Below are positions 12,629 through 36,603 of a stretch of 64,000 nucleotides of DNA, piece by piece; the stretch's first letter is position 1; the number at the start of each line of letters is the position of its first letter. Location of the stretch: assembly GCA_012728835.1 (NCBI GenBank), contig JAAYEJ010000011.1, positions 50,990 to 114,989 on the forward strand. Direction: 5' to 3'. The DNA is from Candidatus Brocadiaceae bacterium (lineage in GTDB: Bacteria; Planctomycetota; Brocadiia; SM23-32). A program made the position numbers and the translations under genes. The notes under the pieces were generated by a model. The model saw nothing but the letters and a program-made list of their open reading frames with translations. It was not told where the DNA came from and ran no database searches.

Positions 12629-12635
12629 ATTCCTC

Positions 12636-13166
12636 TCAGCCGAACCTGGCCCGGACGCCGAGGCCCGGGATCCGGCCCTGGACGACTTCGCTCAGGATGA
12701 AATGGATGAGGTCGGCACACGGCGGACAACCGGGGATGTACTCGTCCACCTTCACGAACCGGTGCAGCGGCTGGACCTGGGGGGAGAGGCGGGGCACGCC
12801 GGCGGCGGGGCCGGACGGCTTGCCCGGGGCGTCGGGGCCGTAGACGGCCTCCAGCATCTCCTGGACGTCGAGGGTGTTCCGCATGGCGGGCACGTTGCCG
12901 GTCACCGCGCAATCGCCCATGCTGATCAGGATCCGGGACCGCTCCCGCGCCTTGCGCAGCAGCTCTTCCTGTTCCTCGTTGCCGACACCGCCGGTGACGA
13001 CGACCACGTCGACGTCTTCGGGGAACTCCTTGCGATCGACCAGCGGGCTGCAGACCAGTTCAATCTGGCCGGCCAGCTCGATGAGCCGCTCGTCCATATC
13101 CAGGAACGACATATGGCAGCCCGAACAGGCTTCCAGCCAGACGGTCGCCATCCTGACGGGCGTCAT
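12636..13166 (-). CDS. hoxY: [NiFe] hydrogenase small (delta) subunit.
   Basis: 176 aa. [14 protein letters not shown] and [10 protein letters not shown] ... IPGCPP Cys motifs are typical of group 3 small subunits. Confidence 0.85.
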
Positions 13167-13912
13167 GGCGTCTCCTCCCGCATCGTGGTCAGGTACGGCA
13201 GGAACTCGCGCCGGCCCACTTCGGCGGCCGCCGTGCCCTTCTCAAACAGCGCGCCGGTCGGGCAGACCTGCACACACTTGCCGCAACCGGTGCACGTCTT
13301 GGACTCGCCCCAGGGGCCGTCGAAGTCGGTGATGACCCGCGATTCGATGCCGCGCCCCTTCACGCCCCAGGTGCGGGCGCCTTCGATCTCGGCGCAGACG
13401 CGCACACAGCGCATGCACAGGATGCAGCGGTTGTGGTCGATGGTGAACCGCTCGTGCGTGGCATCCACGCCCACACGCGGGTGCAGGTAGGCCACGCTGA
13501 CATGGTTCATGCCCAGGTCGCGGGCCAGCGTCTGCAGTTCGCAGTGGCCGTTGGCCACGCAGACGGCGCAGACGTGGTTGCGTTCGGCGAAGAACATCTC
13601 CAGGATCATGCGCCTGTACTTGTTGAGGCGCGGCGACTTCGTGATGACCTCCATCCCCTCGGCGACGCGGGTCACGCAGGCGGGCACCAGTCGCGGGCTG
13701 CCGACGATCTCCACCAGGCAGAGGCGGCAGGCGCCCACGCCGCTGAGGCCGTCCAGATGGCAGATCGCGGGGATGCAGATGTTGTGCTCGCGTGCGACCT
13801 CCAGGATGGTCTGATCTTCACGGCCGCTGACGTCGAGGCCGTCGATCTTGAGCGTCTTGACCGGCCGCGGAGCGCTCTCCGGGGTGACGGGATTCACGGG
13901 TGGAGTCTTCAT
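13163..13912 (-). CDS. hoxU: Hydrogenase diaphorase iron-sulfur subunit (NuoG-N-terminal-like, 2Fe-2S plus 4Fe-4S clusters).
   Basis: This is the C-terminal 249 aa of the fused 772-aa track ORF, starting MKTPPVNP (ATG 13912, overlapping the hoxF stop). It has 2Fe-2[16 protein letters not shown] and ferredoxin-like [11 protein letters not shown] / [12 protein letters not shown] motifs. Confidence 0.85.
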
Positions 13913-15558
13913 CGTTTGACCTCCCGGGCGCCGGCCATCCTGCACACGCCGGCCGGGCACGTGTGGTCCCGTATGTGAGCCACGTACTCGTCGCGGAAGT
14001 AGCGGAGCGTGCTCATCACGGGGTTCGGCGCCGTCTGACACAGGCCGCAGAGACTGGTATTGCGCGTCAAGTCGCAGAGGCTCTCGAGCATGTCCAGGTC
14101 CGCCATGGTCGCCAGCCCCCGGGTGATCCTGGTCAGCAGGAGATGCATCTGGGCCGTTCCCATGCGGCCGGGCAGGCACTTGCCGCACGCCTCCGTCTGG
14201 CAGAATTCCATGAAGTACCGGGCCACGTCCACCATGCAGGAGGTCTCGTCCATGACGATCATCCCGCCGGACCCCATGATGGAGCCCAGTTCCTTCAGCG
14301 ATTCGTAGTCGACCGGCCGGTCCAGATGCTCGGCGGGGATGCAGCCGCCGCTCGGGCCGCCGGTCTGAACGGCCTTGAACTGCCGGCCGTCGGGGATGCC
14401 TCCGCCGATGTCGAAGATGATCTCGCGCAGGGTCATGCCCATCGGGACCTCGATCAGGCCGGTGTTGTTGACGCGGCCGGCCAGGGCGAACACCTTGGTG
14501 CCCTTGCTCTTCTCGGTGCCGATGCCCGAATACCACGCGGCGCCCTTGCGCAGGATGGCGGGCACGGCGGCGAAGGTCTCGACGTTGTTGATCAGCGTCG
14601 GGCGGCCCCAGAGGCCGTAGTTGGCCGGATACGGAGGCCGCGGACGCGGCGTGCCCCGGCTGCCCTCGATCGAGGCCATCAGGGCGGTCTCCTCGCCGCA
14701 CACGAACGCCCCCGCTCCCAGCCGCATCTCGATCTCGAAGTTGAAGCCGGTCCCCAGGATCTGACTGCCCAGCAGGTTCAGGCTCCTGGCCTGCCGGATG
14801 GCCTTGCGGATGCGGCTGATGGCCAGGGGGTACTCCGCCCGCACGTAGATGAACCCCTGGGAGGCGCCGACCGCGTAGGCGGCGATGGCCATGCCCTCCA
14901 GGATCCGGTGCGGGTCGCTCTCCAGGATGCTGCGGTCCATGAACGCGCCGGGGTCGCCCTCGTCGGCGTTGCAGATGATGAACTTCTGGGCGCCGGGGGC
15001 CTTCGCCACGGTGCTCCACTTCAAACCCGTCGGGTAGCCCGCCCCGCCGCGTCCGCGCAGCCCGGCCACCGACACCTCGTTGAGCACATCGGCCGGGTCC
15101 ATCTCCGTCAGGACGCTGGCCAGGCCCTGGTAGCCGTCGACCCCGATGTAGTCCTGGACGTGCTCCGGCTCGATGCGTCCGCAGTTCTCCAGGGCGATCT
15201 TCGTCTGGCGCGCGAAGAACGTCGCATCGGCCTCCATGAGCAGGCGCGCCACCGGTTCGCCGTCCAGGCTCTCGATGATGTCGTCGGCGTCGTCGGGCGA
15301 GACGTTGCAGTAGATGTGCCCCGGAGGATCGACCGAGACGACCGGCCCGCCGGCGCACGGCCCCATGCACCCGACGCCCTTGACGCGCACGCGGGCGTCC
15401 AGCCCCCGGGCCTTCACCTTCTCGGCCAGGGCGGCCAGCACGCGGTCGCTGTGGGCGGACAGGCATCCGGCGGCGGTGCACACGTTAATGCAGCAGGCGA
15501 ACTTCGCCTCGTGCTCGCGCCGTTCCCGGCGCATTCGCTCCAGTTCGTCAGGCTTCAT
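13909..15558 (-). CDS. hoxF: Hydrogenase diaphorase NAD(P)H-binding flavoprotein subunit (NuoF-like).
   Basis: 549 aa. It has an N-terminal thioredoxin-like 2Fe-2S domain, the [17 protein letters not shown] motifs, and a C-terminal 4Fe-4S motif ([28 protein letters not shown]). Confidence 0.9.
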
Positions 15559-18740: not shown

Positions 18741-19442
18741 CTACCTGCCGGCCGGATCCCGCCCGGCCGGCGCCCCCGGAACGTAGCGCTCCGCCCGGTG
18801 GCGTACGATCTCCCCGCACGTCATGTAGATGACGTCCTCGGCGATGTTCGTGGCGTGGTCGGCGATCCGCTCCAGATGGCGGGCCACCGACAGGAGATGG
18901 ATCAGAGCCCCCATCTGCCCGGGATGCTCGCGGATCGCGTTCTGCACCTGCAGGTAGACGTCCCGGTTCATGGCATCGACCTCGTCGTCGGCCGCGCACA
19001 CCGTCCTGGCCAGCGCGGCGTCCAGGTTGACCAGCGCATCCAGGCTCTGCTTGACCATGGCCTGCGCGCCCTGGGCCATGGCGGCGAAGTCGAAGGGCCA
19101 GTCCACCCGGTCGTGCGTGGCCAGGTACTGCGCCCGCTCGGCGATGTTGACCGCCAGGTCGCCGATCCGCTCCAGGTCGCTGTTGATCTTCAGCACGGCC
19201 ACGATGAACCGCAGGTCGATGGCGACGGGCTGATGGAGGGCCAGGATCTTCAGGCACTCCTCCTCGACGTCCACCTCGGCGCGATCGACGTCCGGGTCCG
19301 AGTCGATGACGCGTTGCGCCAGGCGCTCGTCCCGCCGCTCCAGGGCCAGGACGGCGTTCCGCACGCCCTCTTCGACGAGCGCGCTCAGCGACAGCATCTG
19401 CTTCTTGAGACTCTCCAGCTCCCGGCGCAAATGGGCCGACAT
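18741..19442 (-). CDS. phoU: Phosphate transport system regulatory protein PhoU.
   Basis: 233 aa with two PhoU repeats (RIGDLAVNIAERA / RIADHATNIAEDV). It lies downstream of pstB on the same strand. Confidence 0.85.
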   Translation of the reverse strand: MSAHLRRELESLKKQMLSLSALVEEGVRNAVLALERRDERLAQRVIDSDPDVDRAEVDVEEECLKILALHQPVAIDLRFIVAVLKINSDLERIGDLAVNIAERAQYLATHDRVDWPFDFAAMAQGAQAMVKQSLDALVNLDAALARTVCAADDEVDAMNRDVYLQVQNAIREHPGQMGALIHLLSVARHLERIADHATNIAEDVIYMTCGEIVRHRAERYVPGAPAGRDPAGR

Positions 19443-19458
19443 GGCGCCTCCCTCCCCG

Positions 19459-20286
19459 CTATCCGAAACGCCCCGTGATGTAGTCCTCGGTCTCTTTCCG
19501 GCTCGGATTGGTGAATATCCGATCGGTCAACCCGTACTCCACCAACCGGCCCTCGTAGAAGAACGCCGTCAGGTCGCTGACACGGGCGGCCTGCTGCATG
19601 TTGTGCGTCACGATGATGATGGTGTACGCGCCCCGCAACTCGCCGATCAGGTCCTCGACCCGCGCCGTCGAACGCGGGTCGAGCGCCGAGGCCGGCTCGT
19701 CCATCAAGAGCACCTCCGGGTCCACGGCCAGGGCCCGCGCGATGCAGAGGCGCTGCTGCTGCCCGCCCGAGAGCGCCAGCGCGCTGTCGTTCAGCCGGTC
19801 CTTCACCTCCTCCCACAGGGCGGCCCGCACGAGACTGGCCTCGACGATCTCGTGGAGCCGGCGCCGGCCCCTGACCCCGTGCACACGAGGACCGTAGGCG
19901 ACGTTCTCAAAAACGCTCTTCGGGAATGGATTGGGCTTCTGGAAGACCATGCCCACGCGACGGCGCAGCAGGACCACGTCGACGTTCGGCGCATACAGAT
20001 CCTCGCCTTCGAGAGCGAGCAGACCTTCGGCGCGGCAGCCGGGAATCAGGTCGTTCATGCGGTTGATGGCCCGCAGGAACGTGCTCTTCCCGCAGCCGCT
20101 GGGGCCGATGATCGCCGTCACCCGGCCCTGGAGTATGGCCATGTCGACCGCCTTCACCGCCTCGTTGGCCCCGTAGTACACCGAGAACCCGCGGCTTGTG
20201 ACCACGGCATCGCCCGGAGCCGCAGAGGCGGAAGTCGTCGCATCGTCGGTCGATCGGTCCCTCGGCGCAGCCATGACACGATTCAC
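19459..20286 (-). CDS. pstB: Phosphate ABC transporter ATP-binding protein.
   Basis: Walker [10 protein letters not shown], signature [14 protein letters not shown], Walker B LLMDEP. The PstB-specific C-terminus is present. Confidence 0.9.
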
Positions 20287-20289
20287 GGA

Positions 20290-21636
20290 TCAACCCCTCA
20301 GTTTCCTGGTGACGCGGGCGCGCAGCACGACGGCCGCAGCATTCAGAAGCAGAACGACGCCGATCAAGGTCAGCACCATGCCATACTGCACGTGTCGGAT
20401 CTCGTCCACGGCGGCGTGCTCGGTGGCCAGGTTGTAGATGCTCCAGGGCAGCGCCGGCGTCGGGTGCGTGAAGACCTGCCGCAGCGTCGGCACCGCCCCC
20501 AGACTGACGGCCGCGGTGAAGATGATCGGCGCCGTCTCGCCCGCCGCCCGGCCCATGCTCAGGATGATGCTCGTCAGCACGCCGGGCAGGCAGGCCGGCA
20601 GGACGACGGTGAACGTCGTGCGCCACTTCGTCGCCCCCAGGCTCAGGGCGGCCTCCTTGTAGGTGGCCGGCACGGCACGCAATGCCTCTTCAGAGGCCCT
20701 GATGACGGTCGGCAGCACCAGGCAGGCCAGCGTGAGCGACCCGGCCAGCACGCTCCTGGACGGGGAGACCTGCAGGATGTTGATGAAGAACGCGCAACCG
20801 AACAGGCCGAACACGATGCTCGGCACACCGGCCAGCGTGTTGATGCAGGCGCGGATGGCGCTGATCCACCAGCCGCCTCCCGCGTATTCGGTCAGGTAGA
20901 CTGCCGACAGGATTCCCATCGGCCCGGCGACGAGCATCGCGCCGATCGTCAGGTAGAGGGTCCCCAGCACGGCCGGCCCGATGCCGCCGAAGAAATGCGA
21001 ATCCCGGGAGTCGTCCGTCAGGAACCGTCCGTAGAAGGTCAACCGCGGGCGGAGCATCTCCCGGGCATTCCCCTCGATGTGCGCGAAGATCGGCTCCAGC
21101 GAGGTGCCCCGGAACTGCTCGACCCGCGGCACGAGCACCTCCACGCCCATCTGCGCAGGATCGGAGTAGTCATAGGTCGTTGCGTAGAGCACCTCCCGCA
21201 GCTTCACCCGCGCCCGATCCCACCGAGTCTGGCCGTACTGCGCCCGGGGGAGCGCAGGCTGCGGCTCGCCCGGGAACGGCCCCAGCAGGGCGCGCAGCGC
21301 GGCCTTGAGTTCGTCGAGCCGTCCGCCGTACTCCCGGCGCTCGCCCCGGTCCATCTCACCCAACTCCTTTTCGAACTGTGCGATCGCCTCGTAGAGGGGC
21401 CTGCGCGCTTCAGCGGCCAGAGCCAGCTCCGCCCGGATCTCGTCGCGGTCCCCGCGGCCGAACAGCTCCAGCATCACGCGCCGATGCTCCACCGTGCCGC
21501 GGAACAGGAAGGCGCGTGACCCGCGCACGAACATCGGCCCGAGCAACACCGCCAGTGCCCCCGCCATGAGCAGGATCGCCATGACGCCGAGGCCGGAGAA
21601 GGCCCGGTCCATCGTCTTGCGGGTGCTCAGTTGCAC
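20290..21636 (-). CDS. pstA: Phosphate ABC transporter permease PstA (long-N-terminus type).
   Basis: 448 aa. It has the EAALSLGATKWRTTFTVVLP (EAA-loop) permease motif and follows pstC. Confidence 0.85.
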   Translation of the reverse strand: MQLSTRKTMDRAFSGLGVMAILLMAGALAVLLGPMFVRGSRAFLFRGTVEHRRVMLELFGRGDRDEIRAELALAAEARRPLYEAIAQFEKELGEMDRGERREYGGRLDELKAALRALLGPFPGEPQPALPRAQYGQTRWDRARVKLREVLYATTYDYSDPAQMGVEVLVPRVEQFRGTSLEPIFAHIEGNAREMLRPRLTFYGRFLTDDSRDSHFFGGIGPAVLGTLYLTIGAMLVAGPMGILSAVYLTEYAGGGWWISAIRACINTLAGVPSIVFGLFGCAFFINILQVSPSRSVLAGSLTLACLVLPTVIRASEEALRAVPATYKEAALSLGATKWRTTFTVVLPACLPGVLTSIILSMGRAAGETAPIIFTAAVSLGAVPTLRQVFTHPTPALPWSIYNLATEHAAVDEIRHVQYGMVLTLIGVVLLLNAAAVVLRARVTRKLRG

Positions 21637-21639
21637 GGC

Positions 21640-22791
21640 TCACTCCCCCGTCCTTCTCGAGCGGCGAATCGCCCATTCGCTCACCAGGTTGCAGACGAAC
21701 GAGATGGTCAGCAGGCACAGGGCCAGGGCGAACAGCACATGGTAGCGATCGGAGCCCGTGACGTGATCCGCCTCCCCCATGTCGCCGGCGATGGTGGCCG
21801 TCACGGTGCGCACCGGCGCGAGCACGTTCCACCACGGCGAGGGGATCTGCGCGGCGTTCCCCGAAGCCATCCAGACCACCATCGTCTCGCCGACCGCCCG
21901 CATCGCGCCCAGAAGCACCGCGGCCAGGATGCCGCTGCGGGCCGCGGGCACCACGACCTTCACCACCGTTTCCATGCGCGTGGCCCCGAGGCCGTAGCTC
22001 GCCTCGCGCAGTTCACGGCCCACGGTGCTGAGCGCGTCCTCGCAAACGCTCACCACCGTCGGCAGGGCCATGATCCCGAGGATGATCGAGACGTTCAACG
22101 CCGTCGTCCCACTGGCGATGGCCATGCCGTGCAGGGCGCGCGCCGCCGCCCCCACCGCCCCCAGGCAGGCCGCGCCGAACAGAACCCCGGCCGGCACCGC
22201 CACCGCCCGCCGCGCCCCCCCCCTCAAGCAGCCCGATGCCAGGTCGCCGAAGACGACGGCCGCCAGCACGGCGAGCGGCACGCCCACCACCAGCGTGCCC
22301 AGTGCCAGCACCCGTCCTCCGTGCTCCTGCAACAGCGGGGCGAACACGACCAGCGCGAAGAACCCGTAGGCGACCGACGGGATCGCGGCCAGGACCTCGA
22401 TCACCGGCTTGACGGCCTGCCGCAGGCCGAACGGAAGCACGTCGCTCAGGCAGACGGCCGCGGCGATTCCCATCGGGCCGGCCACGACCATGGCGCCGAA
22501 GGTCACCATCGCGCTGCCGTAGAACAGCGTCAGGGCCCCGAATTCAGCCGGCTCCCGCGAAGGATACCACCGGGTGCCGCCGAAGAACTCGCCCAGGCCG
22601 CGGGAGCGGAAGAACGGGAGGGCGTCCCGGATGATCGAGTGGAAGATGAAGAGGATCACCGTGGCCGAACCTACCGCGATGGCGAACAGGAACGCCTCCC
22701 CCGCAAAGGAGGCCAGCCGCGCAAGCCGGCCGGCCCTCCTCTCCCTGACCAGGGCGCGGGGGCGGTGATGCTTCATGCCCTTCCTCCTCAC
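21640..22791 (-). CDS. pstC: Phosphate ABC transporter permease PstC.
   Basis: 383 aa. EAA-like loop EASYGLGATRMETVVKVVVP. The start could instead be Met 6 (22776). Confidence 0.85.
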   Translation of the reverse strand: MRRKGMKHHRPRALVRERRAGRLARLASFAGEAFLFAIAVGSATVILFIFHSIIRDALPFFRSRGLGEFFGGTRWYPSREPAEFGALTLFYGSAMVTFGAMVVAGPMGIAAAVCLSDVLPFGLRQAVKPVIEVLAAIPSVAYGFFALVVFAPLLQEHGGRVLALGTLVVGVPLAVLAAVVFGDLASGCLRGGARRAVAVPAGVLFGAACLGAVGAAARALHGMAIASGTTALNVSIILGIMALPTVVSVCEDALSTVGRELREASYGLGATRMETVVKVVVPAARSGILAAVLLGAMRAVGETMVVWMASGNAAQIPSPWWNVLAPVRTVTATIAGDMGEADHVTGSDRYHVLFALALCLLTISFVCNLVSEWAIRRSRRTGE

Positions 22792-22818
22792 GACGTTCTC
22801 GAAGCCGCACCCGGGTGC

Positions 22819-23679
22819 TCAGCGGTAGTTCGTGACCGGCACGAACCCGAGCCCCTCGACGATCTCCTGCCCCTTCGGCGTCAGGTGCAGCGTGGTATAG
22901 GCGTAGAGGTGGCTTCCCAGCGTCGGGTAGCCGCTGGTGAACAGGAACAACGGCCGGGCGATCGGGTAGCGACCGTTGACCACGGTGGCCGGCGTCGCCT
23001 CGACGCCGTTGATCTGCAGGCTCTTCACGGTCCTGTCCACGAAGCCGAGCCCGACGAAGGCGACGGCCTGCCGGGTCGTCTGCACCCTGGAACGCGCGGC
23101 GCCGTTGCTGCCGACGTACTCGGTGCCGGCGCCCATCTTCTCATTGCCCATCACAAGGCCCTGGAAGGTCTCGTAGGTGCCGCTGTTCGTGTCGCGGCTG
23201 ACGGCCACGATGTCCAGGTTCGGGCCGCCCACCTGGCTCCAGTTCGTCACCCTGCCCGTGTAGATGTCCCGCACCTGCGCAACCGTCAACCCGGTGACGG
23301 GATTCGCAGGATGCACGATGACGGCGATCCCGTCCAGCGCCACGACGTGCGCCACCGGCATCACGCCCCCGTCGATGGCCGCCTTGAACTCGCTGTCCTT
23401 CATGAAGCGCGACATCATGGCGACGTCGCAGGTGCCGTTGACCAGGCTCTTGGCTCCGTTGCCGCTTCCGGACTCGCTGACCGACACCGTCTCCCCGGGG
23501 TTCTGCCGCATGTAGTGCTCAGCAAAGGCTTTGCCGATCGGTCCGACGGTCGTCGAGCCGTCCACGACGATGCTCTTCTTCTCCGCGTCCTGCCCGTGCA
23601 CGATCGCCCCCGTGCCCGCCAGGCCCAGGGCCAGGGCCACCAGAAGGCCACCGGCCAACACTCCCTGCCTCCGCTTCAT
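22819..23679 (-). CDS. pstS: Phosphate-binding periplasmic protein PstS.
   Basis: An internal Met of the 611-aa track ORF (MKRRQGVLAGGLLVALALGLAG...), with ATG at 23679 preceded by GGAGAGGAG. It is 286 aa with a signal peptide and the PstS fold motifs (GSGNGAKSL, SRDTNSGTYETF). Confidence 0.85.
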   Translation of the reverse strand: MKRRQGVLAGGLLVALALGLAGTGAIVHGQDAEKKSIVVDGSTTVGPIGKAFAEHYMRQNPGETVSVSESGSGNGAKSLVNGTCDVAMMSRFMKDSEFKAAIDGGVMPVAHVVALDGIAVIVHPANPVTGLTVAQVRDIYTGRVTNWSQVGGPNLDIVAVSRDTNSGTYETFQGLVMGNEKMGAGTEYVGSNGAARSRVQTTRQAVAFVGLGFVDRTVKSLQINGVEATPATVVNGRYPIARPLFLFTSGYPTLGSHLYAYTTLHLTPKGQEIVEGLGFVPVTNYR

Positions 23680-23804
23680 CCTGCAGCTCCTCTCCCGATG
23701 CCCGCCCTTCAGAAGTCTCGAGCGCGACCGCCGCGCCTGCAGTTGATTGTCTTGCGTCCCCGTTAGGATCGCCTTAAGACCACGTGACTTCTGCATTGCC
23801 GCCG

Positions 23805-23836
23805 GCCCTCCGTACAGCAGGAGCGGGCCCGGGCGG
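23805..23836. terminator. Perfect 14-bp GC stem-loop (GCAGGAGCGGGCCC-gggc-GGGCCCGCTCCTGC) flanked by a CTCCGTACA direct repeat. Likely an intrinsic terminator or insulator between the secretin operon and the pstS promoter.
   Basis: It is read directly from sequence. It lies ~40 nt downstream of the secretin-B stop (23874) and ~130 nt upstream of the pstS start. There is no U-tract, as is common in high-GC genomes. Confidence 0.45.
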
Positions 23837-23873
23837 GCCCGCTCCTGCGGCTCCGTACAAAGCCTGCGGCCGT

Positions 23874-25400
23874 TCAATCCGTGCCCAGAAGCCACATATC
23901 GAAGCCGTATGCCGTCTTCGGCAACGGCAGGTGCGCGTGCCGGAGCACCTGGGCGCGCACCAGTCTGTCCTCCTCGCGCGCCAGTTCCTTGTGCACCTCG
24001 CTGAACTGGACGACGCGGGGGTTGAGCACGATGACCATCTCGGTGGTGCGGCGGGAGTTCTTCTCGCTGCCGAACAGGTGACCCAGGACAGGAATGCTCC
24101 CCAGCAGCGGGATCCTGGCGGTGGACTTCACGTCCTCGGTGCGTTTGAGGCCGCCGATGCAGACCTCCATGCCATCGCGCATCAGGACGGTGCCGGCCAC
24201 GGCGTTGTTGCGGACCATCGGCGTGCCCGAGGGAGTCGCGCCGATGATGCCGTTCATTTCGACGGCGTAGAGCAGTTCGGTCGTCTCCAGGCCGATGTAC
24301 GGTGTCAGGCTGAGTTCCAGGCCGACCTGGACGTCGCCGTTTCGCGTCAGACACCGCCCCTCCCACACGTCGTCGACGAAGGAGGCGCTGTCGTCCGTGC
24401 CGTCGACGGCGCGCTGGTCCAGTTCGTCCGGGCAGATGTCGAAGTGCAGCACCTCGTCGGCTGCCGACAGCGTGCCCACCTCGCCATTGCGGACGTTCAG
24501 CCGCCCGCTGGTGACGAGGCGCGCGCGGCCCTTGCGCACCATGAAATCGACGAACTCCGAGGTGAGCACGAAGTTGAGGCCGGCGTAATGGCCGCTCGCT
24601 GCCTCGCTGGACCCCCACCGCACGCACTGGAAGAGGTCCCTGCCGGGGCCGCACTTCCAGGCCACGAAGTCCAGCCCGAGGCTCAGGTCGTTGGTCAGTT
24701 CCACCTCGTAGACGGCCACGTCGAGCAGCAACTGAGGCGGGAAGACGTCGACCTCTTCCGCAATCTGCACGTATCTGGCCACGCGTGTGGGCTCGCCGCG
24801 GCAGAATATGGAATTCGCCGTGGTGTCGATGATGATCGTGCCGCCGTCGCCTCCGGCCGGCACGCGGGCGATCGCGTCCAGGTCTGCGGCATCCCGGAAC
24901 CGCGCCCTGTAGTAGGCCTGCTGCGACCCGTCGACGTCTTCCTGGAGCCAGGCCACGTCGAGGGCCTTCAGGGCCTCCTCGATGTAGGGCAACTGGAACT
25001 CGGGGGCGATCACCTGCAGCCAGGCCTTGCCGGCCACCTTGTCACGGATCACCTCGGCGCGCCCGCCCTCCTTGGCCGTGATCGTCCGGAAGACGTTGCG
25101 GACCTCGCGCGCAGACGCATTGTGGATCGGGTAGACGCCCACGACGTAGTCGTTGACCAGGTTCTTCTGGTTGACGCGCAGGACCTTCACGGTTGCGTCC
25201 TCACGCGCGTCGATGTTGATCTGCTCGTCCTGGAAGACGTAGTTGTCGATGCCGCTGGCGGTCGCCGTCGGGCTCGGATCCCCGCGGCGATTGGCCACGC
25301 CGGAGGCCTCGTCGCTGCCGCCGGCCGATGCGGTTCCGGCGGCGAACAGGCAGATGCCGAGGGCCGCCATCAGGACTGCGTGTTTGCCCGTGCTGCTCAT
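23874..25400 (-). CDS. Secretin-family outer-membrane channel protein (GspD/PilQ superfamily), paralog B.
   Basis: ATG 25400 (Met 17 of the track ORF; GAGGAGG RBS), signal peptide MSSTGKHAVLMAALGICLFAAGTASA. The C-terminal secretin signature is ARIPLLGSIPVLGHLFGSEKNSRRTTEMVIVLNPRVV. Confidence 0.75.
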   Translation of the reverse strand: MSSTGKHAVLMAALGICLFAAGTASAGGSDEASGVANRRGDPSPTATASGIDNYVFQDEQINIDAREDATVKVLRVNQKNLVNDYVVGVYPIHNASAREVRNVFRTITAKEGGRAEVIRDKVAGKAWLQVIAPEFQLPYIEEALKALDVAWLQEDVDGSQQAYYRARFRDAADLDAIARVPAGGDGGTIIIDTTANSIFCRGEPTRVARYVQIAEEVDVFPPQLLLDVAVYEVELTNDLSLGLDFVAWKCGPGRDLFQCVRWGSSEAASGHYAGLNFVLTSEFVDFMVRKGRARLVTSGRLNVRNGEVGTLSAADEVLHFDICPDELDQRAVDGTDDSASFVDDVWEGRCLTRNGDVQVGLELSLTPYIGLETTELLYAVEMNGIIGATPSGTPMVRNNAVAGTVLMRDGMEVCIGGLKRTEDVKSTARIPLLGSIPVLGHLFGSEKNSRRTTEMVIVLNPRVVQFSEVHKELAREEDRLVRAQVLRHAHLPLPKTAYGFDMWLLGTD

Positions 25401-25444
25401 CTCGTCGCCTCCTCTTGCGGGTTCGGAGTCGGGAAGGGTGGAGG

Positions 25445-26914
25445 TCACTCGGTGCCCTCGCGGTCAAAGAGCCACTGATCGAATCCGGCTTCGGTGGCCG
25501 GCGTCTGCACGGGCACCCGGCGGCGGGCCCGCGCGCGGATCAGCGCCGCGTCGATCTCGGTGTTGGCCCCGCCCATGGCACCGAAATCCCGGACGACGGC
25601 CGCCGAGAGAACGACGACGACGTTGCGCCGTTTGACCAGGTTCTGCTCGCTGCCGAACAGCCATCCGAGGACGGGCAGGCTGCCCAGAACCGGGATCTTG
25701 TTGCTCTGCTGCACCATCATCTCGCGGCCGTAGCCGCCGAGGACGACCTCTTCGCCGTCCTTGACCCGCAGGGAGGTGTCGAAGCTGCGCGCCACGAGCT
25801 GGGGCCGGCCGGTCGAGTCGAACCCCGTGTGGCCGGTCACTTCCAGTTCCAGGTCCAGCGTCACCCCCTGCGTGCCGACCAGTGGCTGCACCTTCAGCCG
25901 GACGCCGGACCGGGCGCTGTCCAGGGCGCGCTCTCGCTGGTCGCCGACCACGACGCGGTCGTCCACGCCGGCCCGCAGGCTGGTCCGCCAGTAGAAGATG
26001 TGGTCGCCGACGTCGATGACGGCCGGCCTGTCGTGCCGCGAGATCACCTTGGCGCTCGTCAGCACGCGGGCTTTGTCCTTGGCCACGAGGAAATCGAAGA
26101 ACCCGCTGTGCATGTTGAGCCGGTAGCTGTAGTGGTTGCTCGGCCCGCCGATCGAGTACCCGGGCACGTCGTCGGTCTCGGAGAGGAAGCCGCCGGCAAA
26201 GAGTTCGCGGCCGGGCCCGTTCTTCCACGACACGTAGTCCAGCCCGAGCGCCGTGTCGTTCTCCACGTTCACCTCGTAGAGAGTCGCCTCGATCATCACC
26301 TGCGCCGGGGGCTGGTCCAGCTCCGGCAGCCATCGTTCGATATCCTCGATGGCGCTCGGCACATCCTGGAACAGGTAGGCATTGACCGGCAGGTCCGCCA
26401 CCTGGTCACCGGTGGCCCGGTTCGGCGAGAGCACGGCATTGACCAGGGCGACGAAGGACGGATCGGCCACGCTCCGGTGCCGGGGGCGGTAGTAGAGCGT
26501 CCTGTCGCCCGACGACGTCGTCAGGCCCGGCACGTCGATGACCTCCATCAGCCGGTCGAGATACGGGATCTGGTAGATGGGCACCATCACGACCGCCTTG
26601 CCGCTTCGGACCGACCCGTGAGGGTCCGCCGGATCTTCGGGCTTGCCGTAGAGGAACCAGGCCCCCTCCTCGATCTCCGTGCTGCGGCGGATGAAGCGAA
26701 TCACCTCGTACGGGTTCACGTTGTCCAGGTCGTAGACCTTCGGCACGTAGCGGTTCGTCTGCGCCTTGTTGGTGGTACGCAGCACCCGGATCAGCGTCGT
26801 GGGCGCTTCGCCGGGTGACCGGAACTCCGCCCCGACCTCGCCCTGGGCGGCCGCACAGGGAGCGGCGCACAGAGCCAGAAAGACCGCTGTGAAGAGAGCC
26901 CTCCGCTTCATCAA
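25445..26914 (-). CDS. Secretin-family outer-membrane channel protein, paralog A.
   Basis: 489 aa, signal peptide MMKRRALFTAVFLALCAAPCAAA. Secretin signature NKIPVLGSLPVLGWLFGSEQNLVKRRNVVVVLSAAVV. It shares a C-terminal GFDxWL tail with paralog B. Confidence 0.75.
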   Translation of the reverse strand: MMKRRALFTAVFLALCAAPCAAAQGEVGAEFRSPGEAPTTLIRVLRTTNKAQTNRYVPKVYDLDNVNPYEVIRFIRRSTEIEEGAWFLYGKPEDPADPHGSVRSGKAVVMVPIYQIPYLDRLMEVIDVPGLTTSSGDRTLYYRPRHRSVADPSFVALVNAVLSPNRATGDQVADLPVNAYLFQDVPSAIEDIERWLPELDQPPAQVMIEATLYEVNVENDTALGLDYVSWKNGPGRELFAGGFLSETDDVPGYSIGGPSNHYSYRLNMHSGFFDFLVAKDKARVLTSAKVISRHDRPAVIDVGDHIFYWRTSLRAGVDDRVVVGDQRERALDSARSGVRLKVQPLVGTQGVTLDLELEVTGHTGFDSTGRPQLVARSFDTSLRVKDGEEVVLGGYGREMMVQQSNKIPVLGSLPVLGWLFGSEQNLVKRRNVVVVLSAAVVRDFGAMGGANTEIDAALIRARARRRVPVQTPATEAGFDQWLFDREGTE

Positions 26915-27669
26915 TCCGTCCTTTCCTGAGGAGATTCGCCGATTTCGAGAGCCTTGACGACACCGCTGTACGCGTTGACGGTGAAGGCCGCAGGCGCGCT
27001 CAGCGGATCATCCTCCGCGCCCAGCAGGACAACCCACACGTAGAGGCCGGTCTCCCCCAGCGGCACCAGAACCGCCCGGGCCGGCACGGTCCCATCGGCC
27101 CCCCCCTTCTCCCTTGCCAGGGCGACGGCCTGTCGGCGGACAACGATGCCCGAATAGGGGTCTCGCTCGAACATCCGCTCGTGCGACACGGCGAACGGCG
27201 CCGGCTCGGAGTAGCAGGTCGACAGAGGCGGCGAACCGGCCTCGGCCCCGCGGCAGCCGCTCAGGCCGACCATGAGCCCCCACTCGCCCGCCTCATCCGT
27301 CAGATCGCAGAACAGGAACGTGCGCCCGGTGCTCTCCCCCGGAGAGATGAGGCGGGGCTGCCCGGCGGCCTGGTTGGGGAGCACGGGCCGGCGCACCAGG
27401 AGTTCTCCCACGCCCGGCCGGCCCCGGCGGAACTTCAGCCCGTCGTTGTCCAGAGAGGGCACGAGCAGATCGCAGGCGCCCACGTTCGTCACGCTCACGG
27501 CCGCCCTCACCGGCTCGCCCCGTGCGTAGGTCGCCGAATCCAGCGAGAGCCGCACCTCCGCCGCGTGATCCGGCGGCCTCGTTGCCGCACAACCGACGGA
27601 CGCCGCCAACGCGGCGACCACGGACAAGAGCACGACGACGGACCGAATGCTTCTGACTCCCGTGAACAT
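26911..27669 (-). CDS. Predicted lipoprotein (signal peptide plus lipobox VGC), unknown function. Candidate secretin-associated (pilotin-like) component.
   Basis: ATG at 27669 (AGGAGGG RBS). MFTGVRSIRSVVVLLSVVAALAASVGC. Its stop overlaps the secretin-A start (26911/26914). Confidence 0.5.
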   Translation of the reverse strand: MFTGVRSIRSVVVLLSVVAALAASVGCAATRPPDHAAEVRLSLDSATYARGEPVRAAVSVTNVGACDLLVPSLDNDGLKFRRGRPGVGELLVRRPVLPNQAAGQPRLISPGESTGRTFLFCDLTDEAGEWGLMVGLSGCRGAEAGSPPLSTCYSEPAPFAVSHERMFERDPYSGIVVRRQAVALAREKGGADGTVPARAVLVPLGETGLYVWVVLLGAEDDPLSAPAAFTVNAYSGVVKALEIGESPQERTD

Positions 27670-27851
27670 GCGTCCGAATCCCTCCTGACCAGCCACTGTG
27701 AGATGACCTGAACCGCCGGGGGCGACGGGGCCTCCCCGTGCCCAACCGTCTCCGACCGCGACGGATCGCGGGCTCGTTCGCCGTTCGCGCCAGGACGTGT
27801 CACAGACAAGGAGCGCGCCCGTGATCCCATGTCACGACTGCGTGCATGCCA

Positions 27852-28185: not shown

Positions 28186-28905
28186 CTACGCCGGCAGGAC
28201 CAGGCAGAAGGTGCTGCCCTCCCCCACGCGGCTCTGCACCGTCACCTGCCCGCCGTGCACCCTCGCGATGTGCTGCACGATGGCCAGGCCCAGCCCCGTG
28301 CCGCCGAGCGCCCGGCTCCGCGACTTGTCCACGCAGTAGAACGGCTCGAAGATGCGCTCGAGATGCTCGCCCGGAATGCCGCAACCGTGGTCGCGCACGC
28401 AGATGCGCACCCGCGAGTCGGCCCGGTCGGCCTCCACGGTCACCGTGGCCCCGTCGGGGCTGTACTTGACGGCGTTGTCCAGCAGGTTGACCAGCGCCTG
28501 CTCGATCAGCCGCGGGTTCATGCGCGCCTCGAGCGACGGCGGGCAGGAGGACTCGATGCGGATCCGTCGGTCGCCGGCTCGAGGTTCGCAGTCGGCGATC
28601 GCCGCGCAGATGACCTCCGCCGGATCGGTCGGTCTGAGGTCGATGGCTTCGGCCGCGGCTTCCCGTTCGATGCGGTAGAGGGCCAGCAGGTCGTCGATGA
28701 TGCGCAGGTCGCGATCGACGGCGATGACGCCCTCGGCCATGCTGGCCAGCACCGCCTCGTGCTCCCGGTTCTGGCGGCTGACCGTCTCGATGTGCTCGCG
28801 CAGGCCGGCGGCCAGGACCTGGTAGCCTTCGCGGGCCAGGCTGTAGCTGACGAGCTGGACGATGTCCTCCTCGTCGTCGACGACCAGCACGCTTTCTCGG
28901 GCCAT
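28186..28905 (-). pseudogene. In-frame phoB-phoR fusion remnant: receiver N-terminus (~34 aa) joined to a PhoR-like PAS start, then jumping into the distal HisKA helix and an intact HATPase_c. It lacks the phospho-acceptor His and the receiver Asp.
   Basis: MARESVLVVDDEEDIVQLVSYSLAREGYQV (REC N-terminus); LASMAEGVIAVDRDLRII (PAS start); DDLLALYRIEREAAAE (end of HisKA); NLLDNAVKYSPDG...DHGCGIPGEHLERIFEPFYCVDKSRSRALGGTGLGLAIV (N, G1, F, G2 boxes). No H-box was found. Confidence 0.5.
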
Positions 28906-29004: not shown

Positions 29005-32268
<3,264 letters not shown>

Positions 32269-32316: not shown

Positions 32317-33363
32317 TCAACTGATCTCTTCGATGAACCGCCGCACGTGCGCGCTCACCTCGCCCGGCAGCGGCGCCGTCGGCATGAACTGGATCCCCGT
32401 CGCCGTGCCGTCCGCCGAACGGATCCCCTCCACCGTGCCGTCGTTGACGTTCTCCCACAGCAGTTCCGCCCGATCGCTTCCGCACACGCTCCGGCGTTCC
32501 AGCACGACGGTATGCCGCTGTCCGGTCACCAGTGTCGCGCCGTCGGCGAGACAGCGCACGGGGTAGTTGACCCCGTGATGGCCGCGCCTCAGGAACGTCA
32601 GCGCGCAGCCGAGCGCCATGCCCAGCGCCACCTGGCCGAGGCCCCACGCGAAGACGGGCACGCGGCCCAGAAGGCCCTTCAGTGCCTCCACAGCCGCCTC
32701 AGGCGGCCGCGCCAGGGCCGGCCCGTCGCTGACGAAGACCGCGGCCGGCCCCCCGCCCAGGACCTCGTCGGCACGGGCGTCCGCCGCGTGCAGCACGGGC
32801 GCACACACCTGCCGAAGCTGCGCCAGCTCCGAACGCCGGATGCCCAGGTCCAGCACGGCGGCCGCCGGCCCGTCGCCCTGCGCATCCCCGCACCCGCCGC
32901 CGGGCGCGCATGCCGGACGCTCCATTCCCGCCAGCGACCGGCGCAGGGCGTCCGCATCCTCCCCGGCCGGCGCGATGGCCGCGGCCATCTCGCCGTGTTC
33001 CCGCAGGTGGACGGCCAGGCCGCGCGTGTCGACGTCGGTCAGGCAGGGCACGCCATTGCGCTGCAGCAGGGCCGCGAAGTCCTCCTCGGCCCGCCAGTGG
33101 CTGCGGCACGGGCTGAGCACCTTGACCACCAGGCCCGCCGGCTGCACCCGCGGCGATTCGGCAAAGGTCTCCGCCGCCCCCACGTTGCCGACCTCCGGAT
33201 AGGTGAAGGCCAGCAGCAGACCGCGATACGCCGGGTCGGTGACCATCTCCTGGAAGCCGACGACCGCCGTGTTGGCGACCACCCAGCCCCGGGCCACCTT
33301 CGCCTCGCCGGCCAGTCGGCCGTTCAGACGGGTGCCGTCGGACAGCAGAATGTATCCGTCCAT
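32317..33363 (-). CDS. carA: Carbamoyl-phosphate synthase small subunit homolog with a catalytically dead glutaminase domain (Cys-His-Glu triad all substituted).
   Basis: The N-terminal CPSase_sm domain is conserved (GEVVFNTSMTGYQE-like VVANTAVVGFQEMVTDPAYRG). In the GATase region VFGICLGHQ is replaced by VFAWGLGQV (Cys to Gly), and FQGHPEASPGP is replaced by IQFMPTAPLPG (His to Met, Glu to Thr). Confidence 0.8.
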   Translation of the reverse strand: MDGYILLSDGTRLNGRLAGEAKVARGWVVANTAVVGFQEMVTDPAYRGLLLAFTYPEVGNVGAAETFAESPRVQPAGLVVKVLSPCRSHWRAEEDFAALLQRNGVPCLTDVDTRGLAVHLREHGEMAAAIAPAGEDADALRRSLAGMERPACAPGGGCGDAQGDGPAAAVLDLGIRRSELAQLRQVCAPVLHAADARADEVLGGGPAAVFVSDGPALARPPEAAVEALKGLLGRVPVFAWGLGQVALGMALGCALTFLRRGHHGVNYPVRCLADGATLVTGQRHTVVLERRSVCGSDRAELLWENVNDGTVEGIRSADGTATGIQFMPTAPLPGEVSAHVRRFIEEIS

Positions 33364-33426: not shown

Positions 33427-34359
33427 TCAGACATACTCGACGGTCGCCGGCGGCTTCGGCGTCAGGTCGTACAGGCACCGGTTGACGCCCGGAAGGCTCG
33501 TGATGCGCGCGCAGATCCGTTCCAGGGTCTCCCAGGGCAGCCGAGTGGGCGTTGCCGTCCGCGCGTCCACGCTCTCGATGCAGCGGACGACGATGATCCG
33601 GCCGAACTCCCGCCTGCCGTCCCGGATGCCGGTGGCCTTGTCGTTCAGAAGGACGGCCAGGTACTGGAACGCCCCGCTGTCGGCCAGCTCCTCCTCCACG
33701 ACGGCCGTGGCCGCCCGCACGACATCCAGGCGCTCCTCGGTCACCTCGCCGACGATGCGCGCGGCCAGCGCCGGGCCGGGGAACGGTATGCGCTCGCTGA
33801 TCTCCGCCGGCAGGCCCACGAGCCGGGCCACCCGGCGCACGCCGTCCTTGCGCAGCGTCTTCAGGGGCTCCAGCACGCCGTAGCCGTAGGCGTCCTGAGG
33901 GTCGATCCCCACCTGCGACAGGATGTTGTGCTGGCGCTTGACGCCCGCGACGGTCTCCTCGATGTCCGTCAGGATCGTGCCGTGAATGAGGAACCGTGCG
34001 CCCGATTCCCGCACGATGCGCGAGAAGACGCGGGAGTAGAACGTCTCGGTGATCGCCCGGCGCTTCTCCTCCGGATCGGTCACCCCCCTCAGGGCGCCCA
34101 GGAACTCGGCGCGTGCGTCCACGAGCGTCACGGGGATGCCCATCCCGGCAAACACCGCCACGACGCGCTCCGGCTCCCCCTCGCGCATCAGCGCGCTGTC
34201 GATGAAGAACGTCTTGAGCCGCTCTCCCAGCGCCCGGTGACCGAGCACGGTGCAGACGGCGCTGTCGACGCCGCCGCTGAGGGCGTTCACGGCGATGCCG
34301 TCGCCCACGGTGTCACGGATCTCAGCGACCTGCTCGTCCACAAATGCCCGGTCGTCCAT
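33427..34359 (-). CDS. guaA: GMP synthase ATP-pyrophosphatase subunit (GuaA C-terminal domain only; no glutamine amidotransferase domain).
   Basis: ATG at 34359 (Met 41 of the track ORF; GGAGA RBS). PP-loop NALSGGVDSAV, and the GMP-synthase C-terminal dimerisation tail ...LTPKPPATVEYV (KPPATIEWE-like). It is 310 aa. Confidence 0.75.
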   Translation of the reverse strand: MDDRAFVDEQVAEIRDTVGDGIAVNALSGGVDSAVCTVLGHRALGERLKTFFIDSALMREGEPERVVAVFAGMGIPVTLVDARAEFLGALRGVTDPEEKRRAITETFYSRVFSRIVRESGARFLIHGTILTDIEETVAGVKRQHNILSQVGIDPQDAYGYGVLEPLKTLRKDGVRRVARLVGLPAEISERIPFPGPALAARIVGEVTEERLDVVRAATAVVEEELADSGAFQYLAVLLNDKATGIRDGRREFGRIIVVRCIESVDARTATPTRLPWETLERICARITSLPGVNRCLYDLTPKPPATVEYV

Positions 34360-34590
34360 CGCTGTCTCCTGCAGGTACACCGGCGGCCCAAGCGGATGTC
34401 TCACGGGTTCCGAGGGCGCGGCGATGGGCCCACGAGGTGCACCGCCCGCGCGGGAATTCACCCGGGGATGGTATCGCATTCGCCGCCGGGACGCAAGTCA
34501 CAGATCGGCATGGGATTGCGGCCCTCCGGCCGTCCGTGCCCGTCCGTGTGTGCGTTCGGGTTGCACGCCCGCCGGAGCACCGGCCGCCGC

Positions 34591-34619
34591 TTGACAGCAG
34601 GGCCCGTGGTGCGTAGAGT
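34591..34619 (+). promoter_or_regulatory. Sigma70-like promoter TTGACA-17-TAGAGT upstream of the 34681 membrane-protein gene, with two CGTCCGTG 10-mer units (34531-34550) positioned just upstream of the -35.
   Basis: Read from sequence: ttgaca at 34591-34596 and tagagt at 34614-34619, a 17-bp spacer, with GTG start 34681 after a GGAGG RBS. Confidence 0.45.
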
Positions 34620-34680: not shown

Positions 34681-36603
34681 GTGAGCTGGCGCGCATTCGC
34701 GATCGGGCTGCTCGCCATCGTCGTCGTCTGCCTCGTCGAGGTCTACAGCGGCGTCGTCCACCCCTACGGAAGCATCACGGGCACCACCCTGCCCGCTGCG
34801 GCGGTGCTCGTGCTGGTCCTGCTGACCGTCGGCCTCAACCCCCTCATCGGCCTGGTGCGGCGTGGCTGGGCGTTCCGCCGGGCGGAGCTGATGGTCGTCT
34901 ACGCCATGGTCCTGTGCGCCTGCGTCGTGCCGGGCGACGGCTTGGGGGCGTTCTGGTACTCGGTGCTGGCGGGCGGCCCCTACATGGCGCGCCGGGCGGA
35001 CCTGCACTGGGAAGACACCGGCTCGCTGACGGTGATCAGCGAGGACCTGGTGCTGAGCAAGGACCCGAAGTCGGTCGCCGCCCTGCAGTACTTCGAAGGG
35101 ACCCGGGAGGGACGCGTCCCGTGGCGCATGTGGGTGCGCCCGATCGTCGCCTGGTCGGTCTTCTACCTGCCGATGTTCCTGGCCGTGCTGCTTCTGTGCG
35201 CGATCCTGAGGCGCCAGTGGGTGGAGGTGGAGCGCCTCATGTTCCCCCTGGCGCGCATTCCCCTGGAGTTCACCGAGGGGAGTGCGCGGGACGGCCTGCT
35301 GCCGGATTTGTTCGGCAACCGGGCGTTCCTCATGGGGCTGCTGGTGAGCGTCGGGTTCCGCTTCCTGCGCGCGGTGCCCCTGTTCTTCGACGCCGAACGC
35401 CGATGGGACCTGGCCCTGCCGCTGGCCGGCATCTTCTCAGGCACGCCGTTCGAGCTGATGAACTTCCACGACATCACGCTGAACTTCACGGCGATCGGGT
35501 TCGGATACCTCGTCCCGGCGGACGTCTCGCTGAGCGTGTGGTTCTTCTTCCTGTTCAGCCGCGTCGAACTGCGCGTCGCCCACAGCCTGAACATCACCAG
35601 CGCCCAGGGAGGCACCTACAGCAAGCTGATGAAGTGGCAGCAACTGGGCTCGAACCTCGTGTTCGTCATCGGCATGTTCTACGTCGCACGGCGCCATCTG
35701 TGGACGGTCCTGAAGAAGGCCCTCTTCCTCTCCCGCACAGACGAGGACGCCTCGGAACCCGTCAGCTACTTCTGGGCGTTCTGGGGCTTCCTGCTCGCCA
35801 TGGCCTTCTGTATCGGCTGGCACATGTACTACGACGTGCCGCTCTGGGTGGCCGCCTACGGCATGGCCCTGCTGTTCTGCTGGTTCCTGGCCTACGCCCG
35901 CGTGACGGCCCAGGGCGGGCTCTACATCGCGCGTCCGATGTGGTGGATCCAGGAGACCATCCACAGCACCACGGGCGCGCTCACCGGCAGCGGCGCCGTG
36001 CTGATGACGGCCCACGAGAACATGCTGATGTACGGCTCCAACATCATGCTCATGCCCGTCGCCATGGACGTCTTCCGCATCTCCGACGCCATCGGCCGGC
36101 GCAAGCGTCTGCTGGTCCCCGCCATCATGTGCGGATTCGTGGTGGCGATCGTCGTCACCTCGTACATGTTCCTGAAGATGGCCTACGGCGTCGGGGCCGT
36201 CAACTTCGCCTACTCCTGGGCGACCATGAACGTGCCCCGCTACGTCTTCGACTGGTCCCACGCGATCATCAAGCAGCCTCGCCAGCAGATGCACTTCTAC
36301 CCGGGCTCGTTCGCCTTCGGCTTCCTCCTGACCGGCTTCATCATGCTCATGCGGGGGCGCTTCTACTGGTGGCCCATCCATCCGATCGGCCTGCTGGCCT
36401 GCAACAGCTACGCGGCCCAGCGCATCTGGGTGCCCTTCTTCCTCGGCTGGCTGATCAAGACCCTCCTGATGAAGTTCTCCGGCGGCCAGAAACTGCGCAC
36501 CGTCCGCGTCTTCTTCATCGCCTACATCGTCAGCGAGATCACCCTCGGCGGCCTCTCGACCGCCGTGCGCATGATCTCCGGAGGAGCCGTCCCCGAGTTC
36601 TGA
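34681..36603 (+). CDS. Large polytopic membrane protein (640 aa, at least 12 predicted TM helices, Trp/Phe/Tyr-rich), unknown function.
   Basis: GTG 34681 lies 7 nt after GGAGG. It is the C-terminal part of the artefactual 2536-aa track ORF. Hydrophobic segments run throughout (AIGLLAIVVVCLVEVY, AAVLVLVLLTVGLNPLIGLV, FYLPMFLAVLLLCAIL, ...). Confidence 0.65.
   Translation: MSWRAFAIGLLAIVVVCLVEVYSGVVHPYGSITGTTLPAAAVLVLVLLTVGLNPLIGLVRRGWAFRRAELMVVYAMVLCACVVPGDGLGAFWYSVLAGGPYMARRADLHWEDTGSLTVISEDLVLSKDPKSVAALQYFEGTREGRVPWRMWVRPIVAWSVFYLPMFLAVLLLCAILRRQWVEVERLMFPLARIPLEFTEGSARDGLLPDLFGNRAFLMGLLVSVGFRFLRAVPLFFDAERRWDLALPLAGIFSGTPFELMNFHDITLNFTAIGFGYLVPADVSLSVWFFFLFSRVELRVAHSLNITSAQGGTYSKLMKWQQLGSNLVFVIGMFYVARRHLWTVLKKALFLSRTDEDASEPVSYFWAFWGFLLAMAFCIGWHMYYDVPLWVAAYGMALLFCWFLAYARVTAQGGLYIARPMWWIQETIHSTTGALTGSGAVLMTAHENMLMYGSNIMLMPVAMDVFRISDAIGRRKRLLVPAIMCGFVVAIVVTSYMFLKMAYGVGAVNFAYSWATMNVPRYVFDWSHAIIKQPRQQMHFYPGSFAFGFLLTGFIMLMRGRFYWWPIHPIGLLACNSYAAQRIWVPFFLGWLIKTLLMKFSGGQKLRTVRVFFIAYIVSEITLGGLSTAVRMISGGAVPEF

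Follow-up and report, generated by a model that had tools for sequence, protein, structure and literature searches.

The stretch of DNA studied here encodes a carbamoyl-phosphate synthase (CPS) whose small subunit is almost certainly dead as a glutaminase. It comprises 64,000 nucleotides (nt) from a Candidatus Brocadiaceae bacterium of the phylum Planctomycetota (contig JAAYEJ010000011.1, positions 50,990–114,989), and we call it the window. The gene of the small subunit, carA*, lies between guaA-C, which codes for a subunit of guanosine monophosphate (GMP) synthase, and carB, which codes for the large CPS subunit. Its product, CarA*, has lost the catalytic triad and the glutamine site: by its sequence it is a pseudo-enzyme, predicted to be unable to bind or to hydrolyse glutamine. 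It has kept the fold of CarA, it is under purifying selection and it is regularly paired with an intact carB. Since glutamine would be neither bound nor hydrolysed by CarA*, the CarA*-CarB pair most likely uses free ammonia. We consider it probable, on these grounds, that the encoded CPS is ammonia-dependent and has CarA* as a structural or allosteric subunit.

We will start with the loss of the active site. A HMMER alignment of CarA* to E. coli CarA (PDB 1c30_B and others) has an E-value of about 2e-45 and is ungapped around both catalytic motifs. The motif FGICLGHQ of E. coli becomes FAWGLGQV: C269 is replaced by G241, H272 by Q244 and Q273 by V245. The second motif, FQGHPE, becomes IQFMPT, with M327 in place of H353 and T329 in place of E355. 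The DNA letters of both stretches read exactly in this way. An initial annotation of the window had claimed that Cys, His and Glu are all replaced, and this is borne out: the triad is absent, not shifted. The glutamine-binding residues of E. coli CarA, which we take to be S47, Q273, N311, G313 and F314, have also disappeared: besides Q273, we find A45 for S47, R283 for N311, T285 for G313 and V286 for F314. A further change in the site is that of G243 to Ala. When compared with the glutamine-hydrolysing CarA (EC 6.3.5.5), the protein has the N-domain, the fold of the glutamine amidotransferases (GATase) and the adjacency to carB; it has neither the triad nor the glutamine-binding residues, and it falls under both curated NCBIfam cut-offs for CarA (TIGR01368, 206.5 bits for a cut-off of 307.35; NF009475, 214.5 for 221). 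At NCBI the identical protein is GXY85_01500, named 'hypothetical protein', from a metagenome-assembled genome (MAG) labelled Candidatus Brocadiaceae bacterium.

The architecture of the protein is that of a CarA, as the initial annotation had also stated. The Pfam domain CPSase_sm_chain (PF00988) is found in residues 6–130 with an E-value of 8.8e-35, its whole model being covered, and the GATase domain (PF00117) in residues 191–328 with 6.6e-10. AlphaFold2, run on 17 members of the family, gave a model with a predicted local distance difference test score (pLDDT) of 89.7 and a predicted template-modelling score (pTM) of 0.90; its block of lowest pLDDT is the inter-domain linker (residues 141–166). 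The best PDB match of this model in Foldseek is E. coli CarA, 1c30_B (query TM-score, TMq, 0.91; E-value 4e-31), followed by the N-terminal part of the human ammonia-specific CPS1 (TMq 0.82).

The three genes guaA-C, carA* and carB are co-directional on the minus strand and form an operon-like module (Table 1), with gaps of 63 nt between the first two and of 48 nt between carA* and carB. Between these genes we found no site resembling a terminator or a promoter, nor did we find in the module any Rfam element or regulatory RNA. The G+C content of the window is about 70%. The large subunit is intact: it scores 1587.6 bits with NF003671 (cut-off 599), it has all the expected Pfam domains, the MGS-like allosteric domain among them, and its residues 1–400 align to E. 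coli CarB with 734 bits. The claim that carA* is operonic with an intact carB thus holds. As for guaA-C, the mechanical open reading frame (ORF) reaches position 34479; the homologues begin at Met41 (nt 34359) and the gene caller also gives 310 amino acids (aa). It scores 313.5 bits with TIGR00884 guaA_Cterm (cut-off 338.75) and contains the Pfam domains GMP_synt_C and NAD_synthase, without a GATase domain.

Table 1. Features of the carA* module, in window coordinates, and loci of other triad-less carA genes, in the coordinates of each locus
Feature	Position	Strand	Details
carA* (CarA homologue without catalytic triad)	32317..33363	-	348 aa + stop; ATG start, TGA stop at 32317-32319
guaA-C (stand-alone GMP-synthase ATP-pyrophosphatase/dimerisation subunit)	33427..34359	-	310 aa; first gene of the three-gene module
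carB (complete CPS large subunit)	29005..32268	-	1087 aa; both ATP-grasp halves, oligomerisation domain, MGS-like allosteric domain
carA*, N-terminal CPSase small-chain domain, residues 1-140, CarB-docking	32944..33363	-	Pfam PF00988
carA*, inter-domain linker, residues 141-166, poorly conserved	32866..32943	-	low identity, lowest pLDDT
carA*, pseudo-glutaminase (class-I GATase-like) domain, residues 167-348	32320..32865	-	Pfam PF00117
FAWGLGQV, former nucleophile elbow (E. coli FGICLGHQ)	32629..32652	-	Gly241 in place of Cys269
IQFMPT, former His/Glu motif (E. coli FQGHPE)	32377..32394	-	Met327 in place of His353, Thr329 in place of Glu355
Triad-less carA (Gly for Cys), Sporomusaceae, Christensenellales and other MAGs	L091:3787-9035, L092:2899-12563, L093:4629-11339, L086:8001-12302		

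The triad-less state is shared by a whole family of proteins. We see the identical CarA* on 15 contigs, which belong to several assemblies, and about 90 clusters at 90% identity (P0001-P0090, 44–77% identical) are in the same condition. When one genome was scanned for each GTDB species, 23 loci were obtained, all from uncultured Planctomycetota labelled Brocadiaceae, Brocadiia or Planctomycetota, SM23_32 included. The C269 position is Gly in each of the 120 closest relatives, the 90 members of the family among them. In the family the H353 position is occupied by I, M, V, T or L and that of E355 mostly by A. The glutamine-binding positions are also changed: V for Q273, R for N311 (86 of the 90 members), T or S for G313 and V for F314. 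In most members the residue just ahead of the old nucleophile, at the position of E. coli I268, is a Cys (xxCGLGHV); the window protein has Trp there.

It is apparent that this dead domain has been maintained. We found 21 intact orthologous ORFs of 348–358 aa in species-level MAGs. The ratio of nonsynonymous to synonymous substitution rates (dN/dS), taken from pairs with unsaturated dS, is 0.13–0.20 in the pseudo-glutaminase domain and 0.13–0.34 in the N-domain. These values, as low in the pseudo-glutaminase domain as in the N-domain, indicate purifying selection on the dead domain, as would be expected if CarA* served an ammonia-using CPS as a structural or allosteric small subunit. The linker, with a dN/dS of about 0.3–0.7, is the only relaxed part of the gene; its mean identity in the family is 31%, that of the N-domain 64%. 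All the invariant residues of the pseudo-glutaminase domain come from canonical CarA motifs (SDGP, GLG, RGHHGxN, QxH, DGxxEG). No new conserved motif and no new conserved polar or catalytic residue was found in this domain in the family alignment.

The gene order is equally conserved. In every related locus with downstream sequence, carB directly follows carA*, and guaA-C directly precedes it in 19 of the 22 informative loci. CarA* evolves faster than its partners: its identity across the related loci is 50–64%, compared with 72–81% for CarB and 73–80% for GuaA-C. Besides these three genes, we found no further conserved neighbour among the related loci.

Other loci show different states of the small subunit. 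A sister group of over 90 clusters, about 40% identical to the window family (P0091-P0120, P0284-P0377; loci L084, L085, L088), has the motif GIGLGHQ, with Cys replaced by Gly in all members; His353 is kept and the E355 position is variable. The synteny of guaA-C, carA and carB is the same, including a 5.97-Mb contig (GCA_041320515.1). These homologues are named 'glutamine-hydrolyzing carbamoyl-phosphate synthase small subunit' by PGAP, the NCBI annotation pipeline, despite the Gly at the nucleophile position; the name is probably an annotation error which is propagating. In a more distant locus (L089:6001-10179, JGI Ga0416708_000001, a 781-kb contig) a GuaA-C 77% identical to that of the window is followed after 45 nt by carB, and there is no carA. 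This orphan CarB of 1066 aa keeps C232 and shares 52% identity with the window CarB; within 6 kb there are also pyrG and two glutamate dehydrogenase genes. As judged from these sequences, there are graded states: loss of Cys in the sister group, loss of the whole triad in the window family, and no small-subunit gene in L089. The last one is a separate lineage and not a later step of the same series, because its CarB is only 52% identical.

Triad-less small subunits are also found outside the Planctomycetota. A HMMER search with CarA* over 1.84 billion representatives was made and the best 150 hits were taken, 135 of them full-length. The complete C/H/E triad is absent in 87 of these 135 proteins, most of which have Gly for Cys; this is not an estimate of prevalence, since the sample is biased and the query itself is degenerate. 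Examples with a name come from Christensenellales and Sporomusaceae MAGs (Firmicutes). Carbamoyl phosphate feeds arginine and pyrimidine synthesis, and the contexts found are carA*-carB, pyrB-pyrC-(pyrF)-carA*-carB-pyrK-pyrD-pyrE and argD-carA*-carB-argF. As far as gene order can tell, triad-less CarAs fill the slot of a working carA in several lineages. A quick neighbour-joining tree requires at least 16 changes among triad states, a figure from which the number of origins cannot be inferred, as the tree is crude and the sample biased to the query.

If ammonia is the substrate, it must reach the active site of CarB. In human CPS1 glutamine is not used because the Cys is replaced, and Gln318, at the position of E. 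coli G293, blocks the old tunnel; external ammonia has been proposed to enter by another path, which ends at a conserved gate equivalent to C232, A251 and A314 of E. coli CarB (PMC4655335). The equivalent of G293 is Val in the window CarA* and Ala or Val in the family. Those of A309 (Q, H, E and others) and G359 (Q, R, E and others) are variable and often bulky among the 90 family members; the mutation G359F breaks the ammonia tunnel of E. coli CPS, according to the title of PDB 1M6V. The gate of CarB reads T232, A251 and A314, invariant in the family. Thr232 is present in the window, in all 19 readable family loci and in the sister group; Christensenellales CarBs have Cys, as does that of L089. 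Thus the tunnel positions of the small subunit appear not to be maintained, while the CarB gate is conserved. We infer that ammonia is not delivered from the vestigial pocket and that it would enter nearer to the subunit interface or in CarB itself. E. coli CarB alone makes carbamoyl phosphate from ammonia (Trotta et al. 1971, as cited in PMC8121099).

The explanation which we prefer is the following. The CarA*-CarB pair would make carbamoyl phosphate from free ammonia, bicarbonate and two ATP. CarA* would dock on CarB by its N-domain, which has been kept, as has the amidotransferase fold, with its glutamine chemistry lost. Ammonia would pass the conserved gate of CarB to get to its carboxyphosphate site, and would not come from the old glutaminase pocket. 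CarA* may have been kept since the stability, the assembly or the catalytic or allosteric competence of CarB depends on it. Such a system would be a bacterial analogue of animal CPS I, made of two subunits and evolved by convergence. The initial annotation had predicted an ammonia-dependent CPS with a purely structural or allosteric small subunit. The loss of the triad, the kept fold, the purifying selection and the comparative synteny all support this prediction; the use of ammonia itself is deduced from them. The comparative data strengthen it: the synteny is shared by a sister group without the Cys, guaA-C and carB are found as a pair without carA, and triad-less carA genes occur in pyr and arg operons. 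The window also contains, on the minus strand in positions 11201–15558, genes for a NiFe-hydrogenase large-subunit-like protein, a NuoB-like small subunit (Oxidored_q6) and a NuoF-like flavoprotein. They point to a soluble hydrogenase of the bidirectional type and to an anaerobic way of life, which we have counted in favour of an ammonia-using CPS.

Several other explanations have to be weighed. A misaligned or shifted triad is ruled out by the ungapped alignment to E. coli CarA and by that of the family. That carA* is a pseudogene or an artefact of assembly or sequencing might be thought from its name at NCBI and from its scores under both NCBIfam cut-offs; its occurrence on 15 contigs, the 21 intact orthologues of constant length, dN/dS values well below one and the confident model rule this out, and we give it practically no weight. 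The Cys found in most family members one residue upstream of the old nucleophile might restore glutaminase activity, an idea with hardly any credit. The window protein has Trp at this place and its close relatives have W, F, Y, L, A, S, N, T, V or I, which rules out this Cys as a nucleophile in the window protein; moreover His353, Glu355 and the glutamine-binding residues have gone too, and the register of the G-x-C-x-G elbow has not been rebuilt.

The last two explanations accept that the glutaminase is dead. In one of them CarA* has acquired a new function: its old pocket would bind or cleave another nitrogen donor, or sense a new ligand which regulates CarB. The initial annotation had raised a similar possibility, a CarA repurposed to channel another donor. 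The domain is indeed conserved (dN/dS about 0.15), 86 of the 90 members have the Arg which replaces N311, and the motifs RGHHGxN and QRH(T/S)V are nearly invariant. However, canonical CarA motifs account for all the invariant residues, the domain has gained no conserved polar or catalytic residue, and the triad positions have Gly, aliphatic or small residues, so that there is no nucleophile. Ammonia is unlikely to be delivered from the pocket, since the positions A309 and G359, which line the tunnel, vary greatly and often have bulky residues. We regard a new function as very improbable, and the idea of another donor is not upheld. The other explanation is a dual system, in which a canonical carA or carAB elsewhere in the genome either feeds this CarB with glutamine-derived ammonia or serves at low ammonium, the CarA*-CarB pair being only the isozyme for high ammonium. 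There is a precedent in Bacteroides thetaiotaomicron, which has a canonical CarAB for low ammonium and an orphan CarB2 for high ammonium, and many Firmicutes have two CPSs (PMC8121099). Against it, Pfam scans of about 45 candidate genes in the 64-kb window revealed neither a second carA nor a further GATase gene, and there is none in the 10-kb flanks of the related loci either. The dead gene also fills the canonical slot beside carB and is under purifying selection in over 20 species, which would be odd if another CarA used the same docking surface. A dual system seems unlikely to us, and its isozyme version is in any case compatible with the ammonia dependence of CarA*-CarB: given the precedent, a canonical carA elsewhere would make this pair a high-ammonium isozyme and would not overturn the use of ammonia.

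Some points weigh against an ammonia-dependent enzyme. One is the change of C232 to Thr at the CarB gate, whatever its effect. The bacterial CPSs which have been characterised have a poor affinity for ammonia, so that this one would need high ambient ammonium or an adaptation which is invisible in its sequence. A canonical carA or carAB may be present elsewhere in the genome, as our search covered the window and the 10-kb flanks of related loci. Finally, a dead subunit has been kept in this family, although it has apparently been lost in one or more other lineages. A wider proposal is that CarA*-CarB is the sole CPS of this Planctomycetota lineage, an obligately ammonia-dependent and convergent bacterial 'CPS I', and that it is one case of a broad unrecognised class of triad-less CarAs in pyr, arg and guaA-C/carB operons of uncultured anaerobes (Planctomycetota, Christensenellales, Sporomusaceae and others). 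We put this forward tentatively, as a possibility that we would not quite favour.

The neighbouring guaA-C gene had been taken as a hint of glutamine-independent nitrogen assimilation, as it lacks a glutaminase domain. This argument is weak. A stand-alone GuaA-C of 310 aa is normal in two-subunit GMP synthases, and it is very common: proteins of this length about 78% identical to that of the window (P0378-P0497) are abundant in Planctomycetota and Lentisphaerae MAGs, and many of them are called 'ExsB family transcriptional regulator' at NCBI. The glutaminase of two-subunit GMP synthases has its gene elsewhere (PMC10526850), so the absence of a fused GATase says little on glutamine independence. 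Stand-alone ATP-pyrophosphatase (ATPPase) subunits of GMP synthase can use external ammonia in vitro (PMC10526850). A 2023 review describes the bacterial enzyme as two-domain (PMC10526850); in view of the abundance of stand-alone GuaA-C proteins, the two-subunit form appears to be under-recognised in Bacteria.

In the accepted view, glutamine is the nitrogen source of bacterial CPS. One paper has glutamine used by all types of CPS except CPS1 (PMC4655335). According to another, of 2021, every eubacterial CPS discovered until then depends on glutamine, and a bacterial ammonium-dependent CPS is a gap in knowledge (PMC8121099). If the wider proposal given above is true, the rule of glutamine dependence in bacterial CPSs fails. 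A conserved and selected triad-less CarA with an intact CarB offers a concrete object in which this question can be tested, and CarA* may be a natural model for why enzymes of the CPS I type keep a dead glutaminase domain. Triad-less CarAs might also serve in metabolic models of MAGs as a marker of ammonium-rich anaerobic lifestyles. Three names should be corrected in the databases: 'glutamine-hydrolyzing' for Cys-less proteins, 'hypothetical' for carA* and 'ExsB family transcriptional regulator' for GuaA-C. In the literature we found no triad-less bacterial CarA described; subscription journals were not covered, so that an earlier mention is possible.

The other genes of the window are of a varied nature. 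Divergent from guaA-C there is a DUF6785/DUF6784 membrane protein of 640 aa (34681–36603, plus strand); ahead of it lies the only sigma-70-like match of the region (34591–34619, plus strand). Directly downstream of carB an ORF of 239 aa (28186–28905, minus strand) begins with about 30 receiver-like residues, as at the start of a response regulator, followed by HATPase_c without HisKA; it may be a truncated or fused remnant of a sensor kinase. On the minus strand, in positions 18741–27696, we find pstC, pstA, pstB and phoU, then two secretin genes in tandem and an ORF of 261 aa without Pfam match. A large cluster of lipid/polyketide type occupies positions 42812–63997. It has three ketosynthase-like genes, an acyl carrier protein (ACP), a radical-SAM/SPASM/ACP fusion, a B12-binding radical SAM protein, an AMP-ligase, a thioesterase, a lipid A-type acyltransferase, a LolA-like protein, a polysaccharide deacetylase, a FabG-type reductase and an acyltransferase-methyltransferase fusion. 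The whole recalls clusters of the aryl-polyene or ladderane type.

We may now compare the module with known systems. GuaA-C resembles the ATPPase of the archaeal-type two-subunit GMP synthases (P. horikoshii, M. jannaschii) in being a stand-alone ATPPase and dimerisation subunit of about 310 aa; it differs in being bacterial and conserved beside carA* and carB. The orphan CarB2 of B. thetaiotaomicron (BT3866), an anaerobe of ammonium-rich habitat, has been proposed from fitness data as an ammonium-dependent CPS (Liu et al. 2021, PMC8121099). It is also a bacterial CarB which apparently works without a glutaminase, and the orphan carB which follows guaA-C in L089 is comparable to it. However, CarB2 has no small subunit at all, whereas the window family, which is known from its sequences, keeps a conserved dead one.

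With E. coli CarAB (CPS II; PDB 1JDB, 1C30) the module shares the two-gene arrangement, the domain architecture of both subunits and the fold of the small one. The difference lies in the residues C269, H353, E355, S47, Q273, N311, G313 and F314, all of which are replaced in CarA*, and in the scores under the curated CarA cut-offs. Animal CPS I (human CPS1, PDB 5DOT/5DOU) also uses ammonia, as CarA*-CarB would if our interpretation is right. Both have kept a CarA-type N-domain and an ancestral glutaminase-like domain which is inactive, in CarA* as judged by its sequence, with the catalytic Cys replaced; in both the equivalent of G293 is enlarged and the gate of the synthetase is conserved. However, CPS I is one fused polypeptide of 1500 residues which needs N-acetylglutamate, whereas CarA* and CarB are encoded by two genes. 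CPS I has only changed its Cys to Ser and keeps His and Glu, whereas CarA* has lost all three residues of the triad and the glutamine-binding residues as well. The origin of the CarA*-CarB pair is independent and bacterial.

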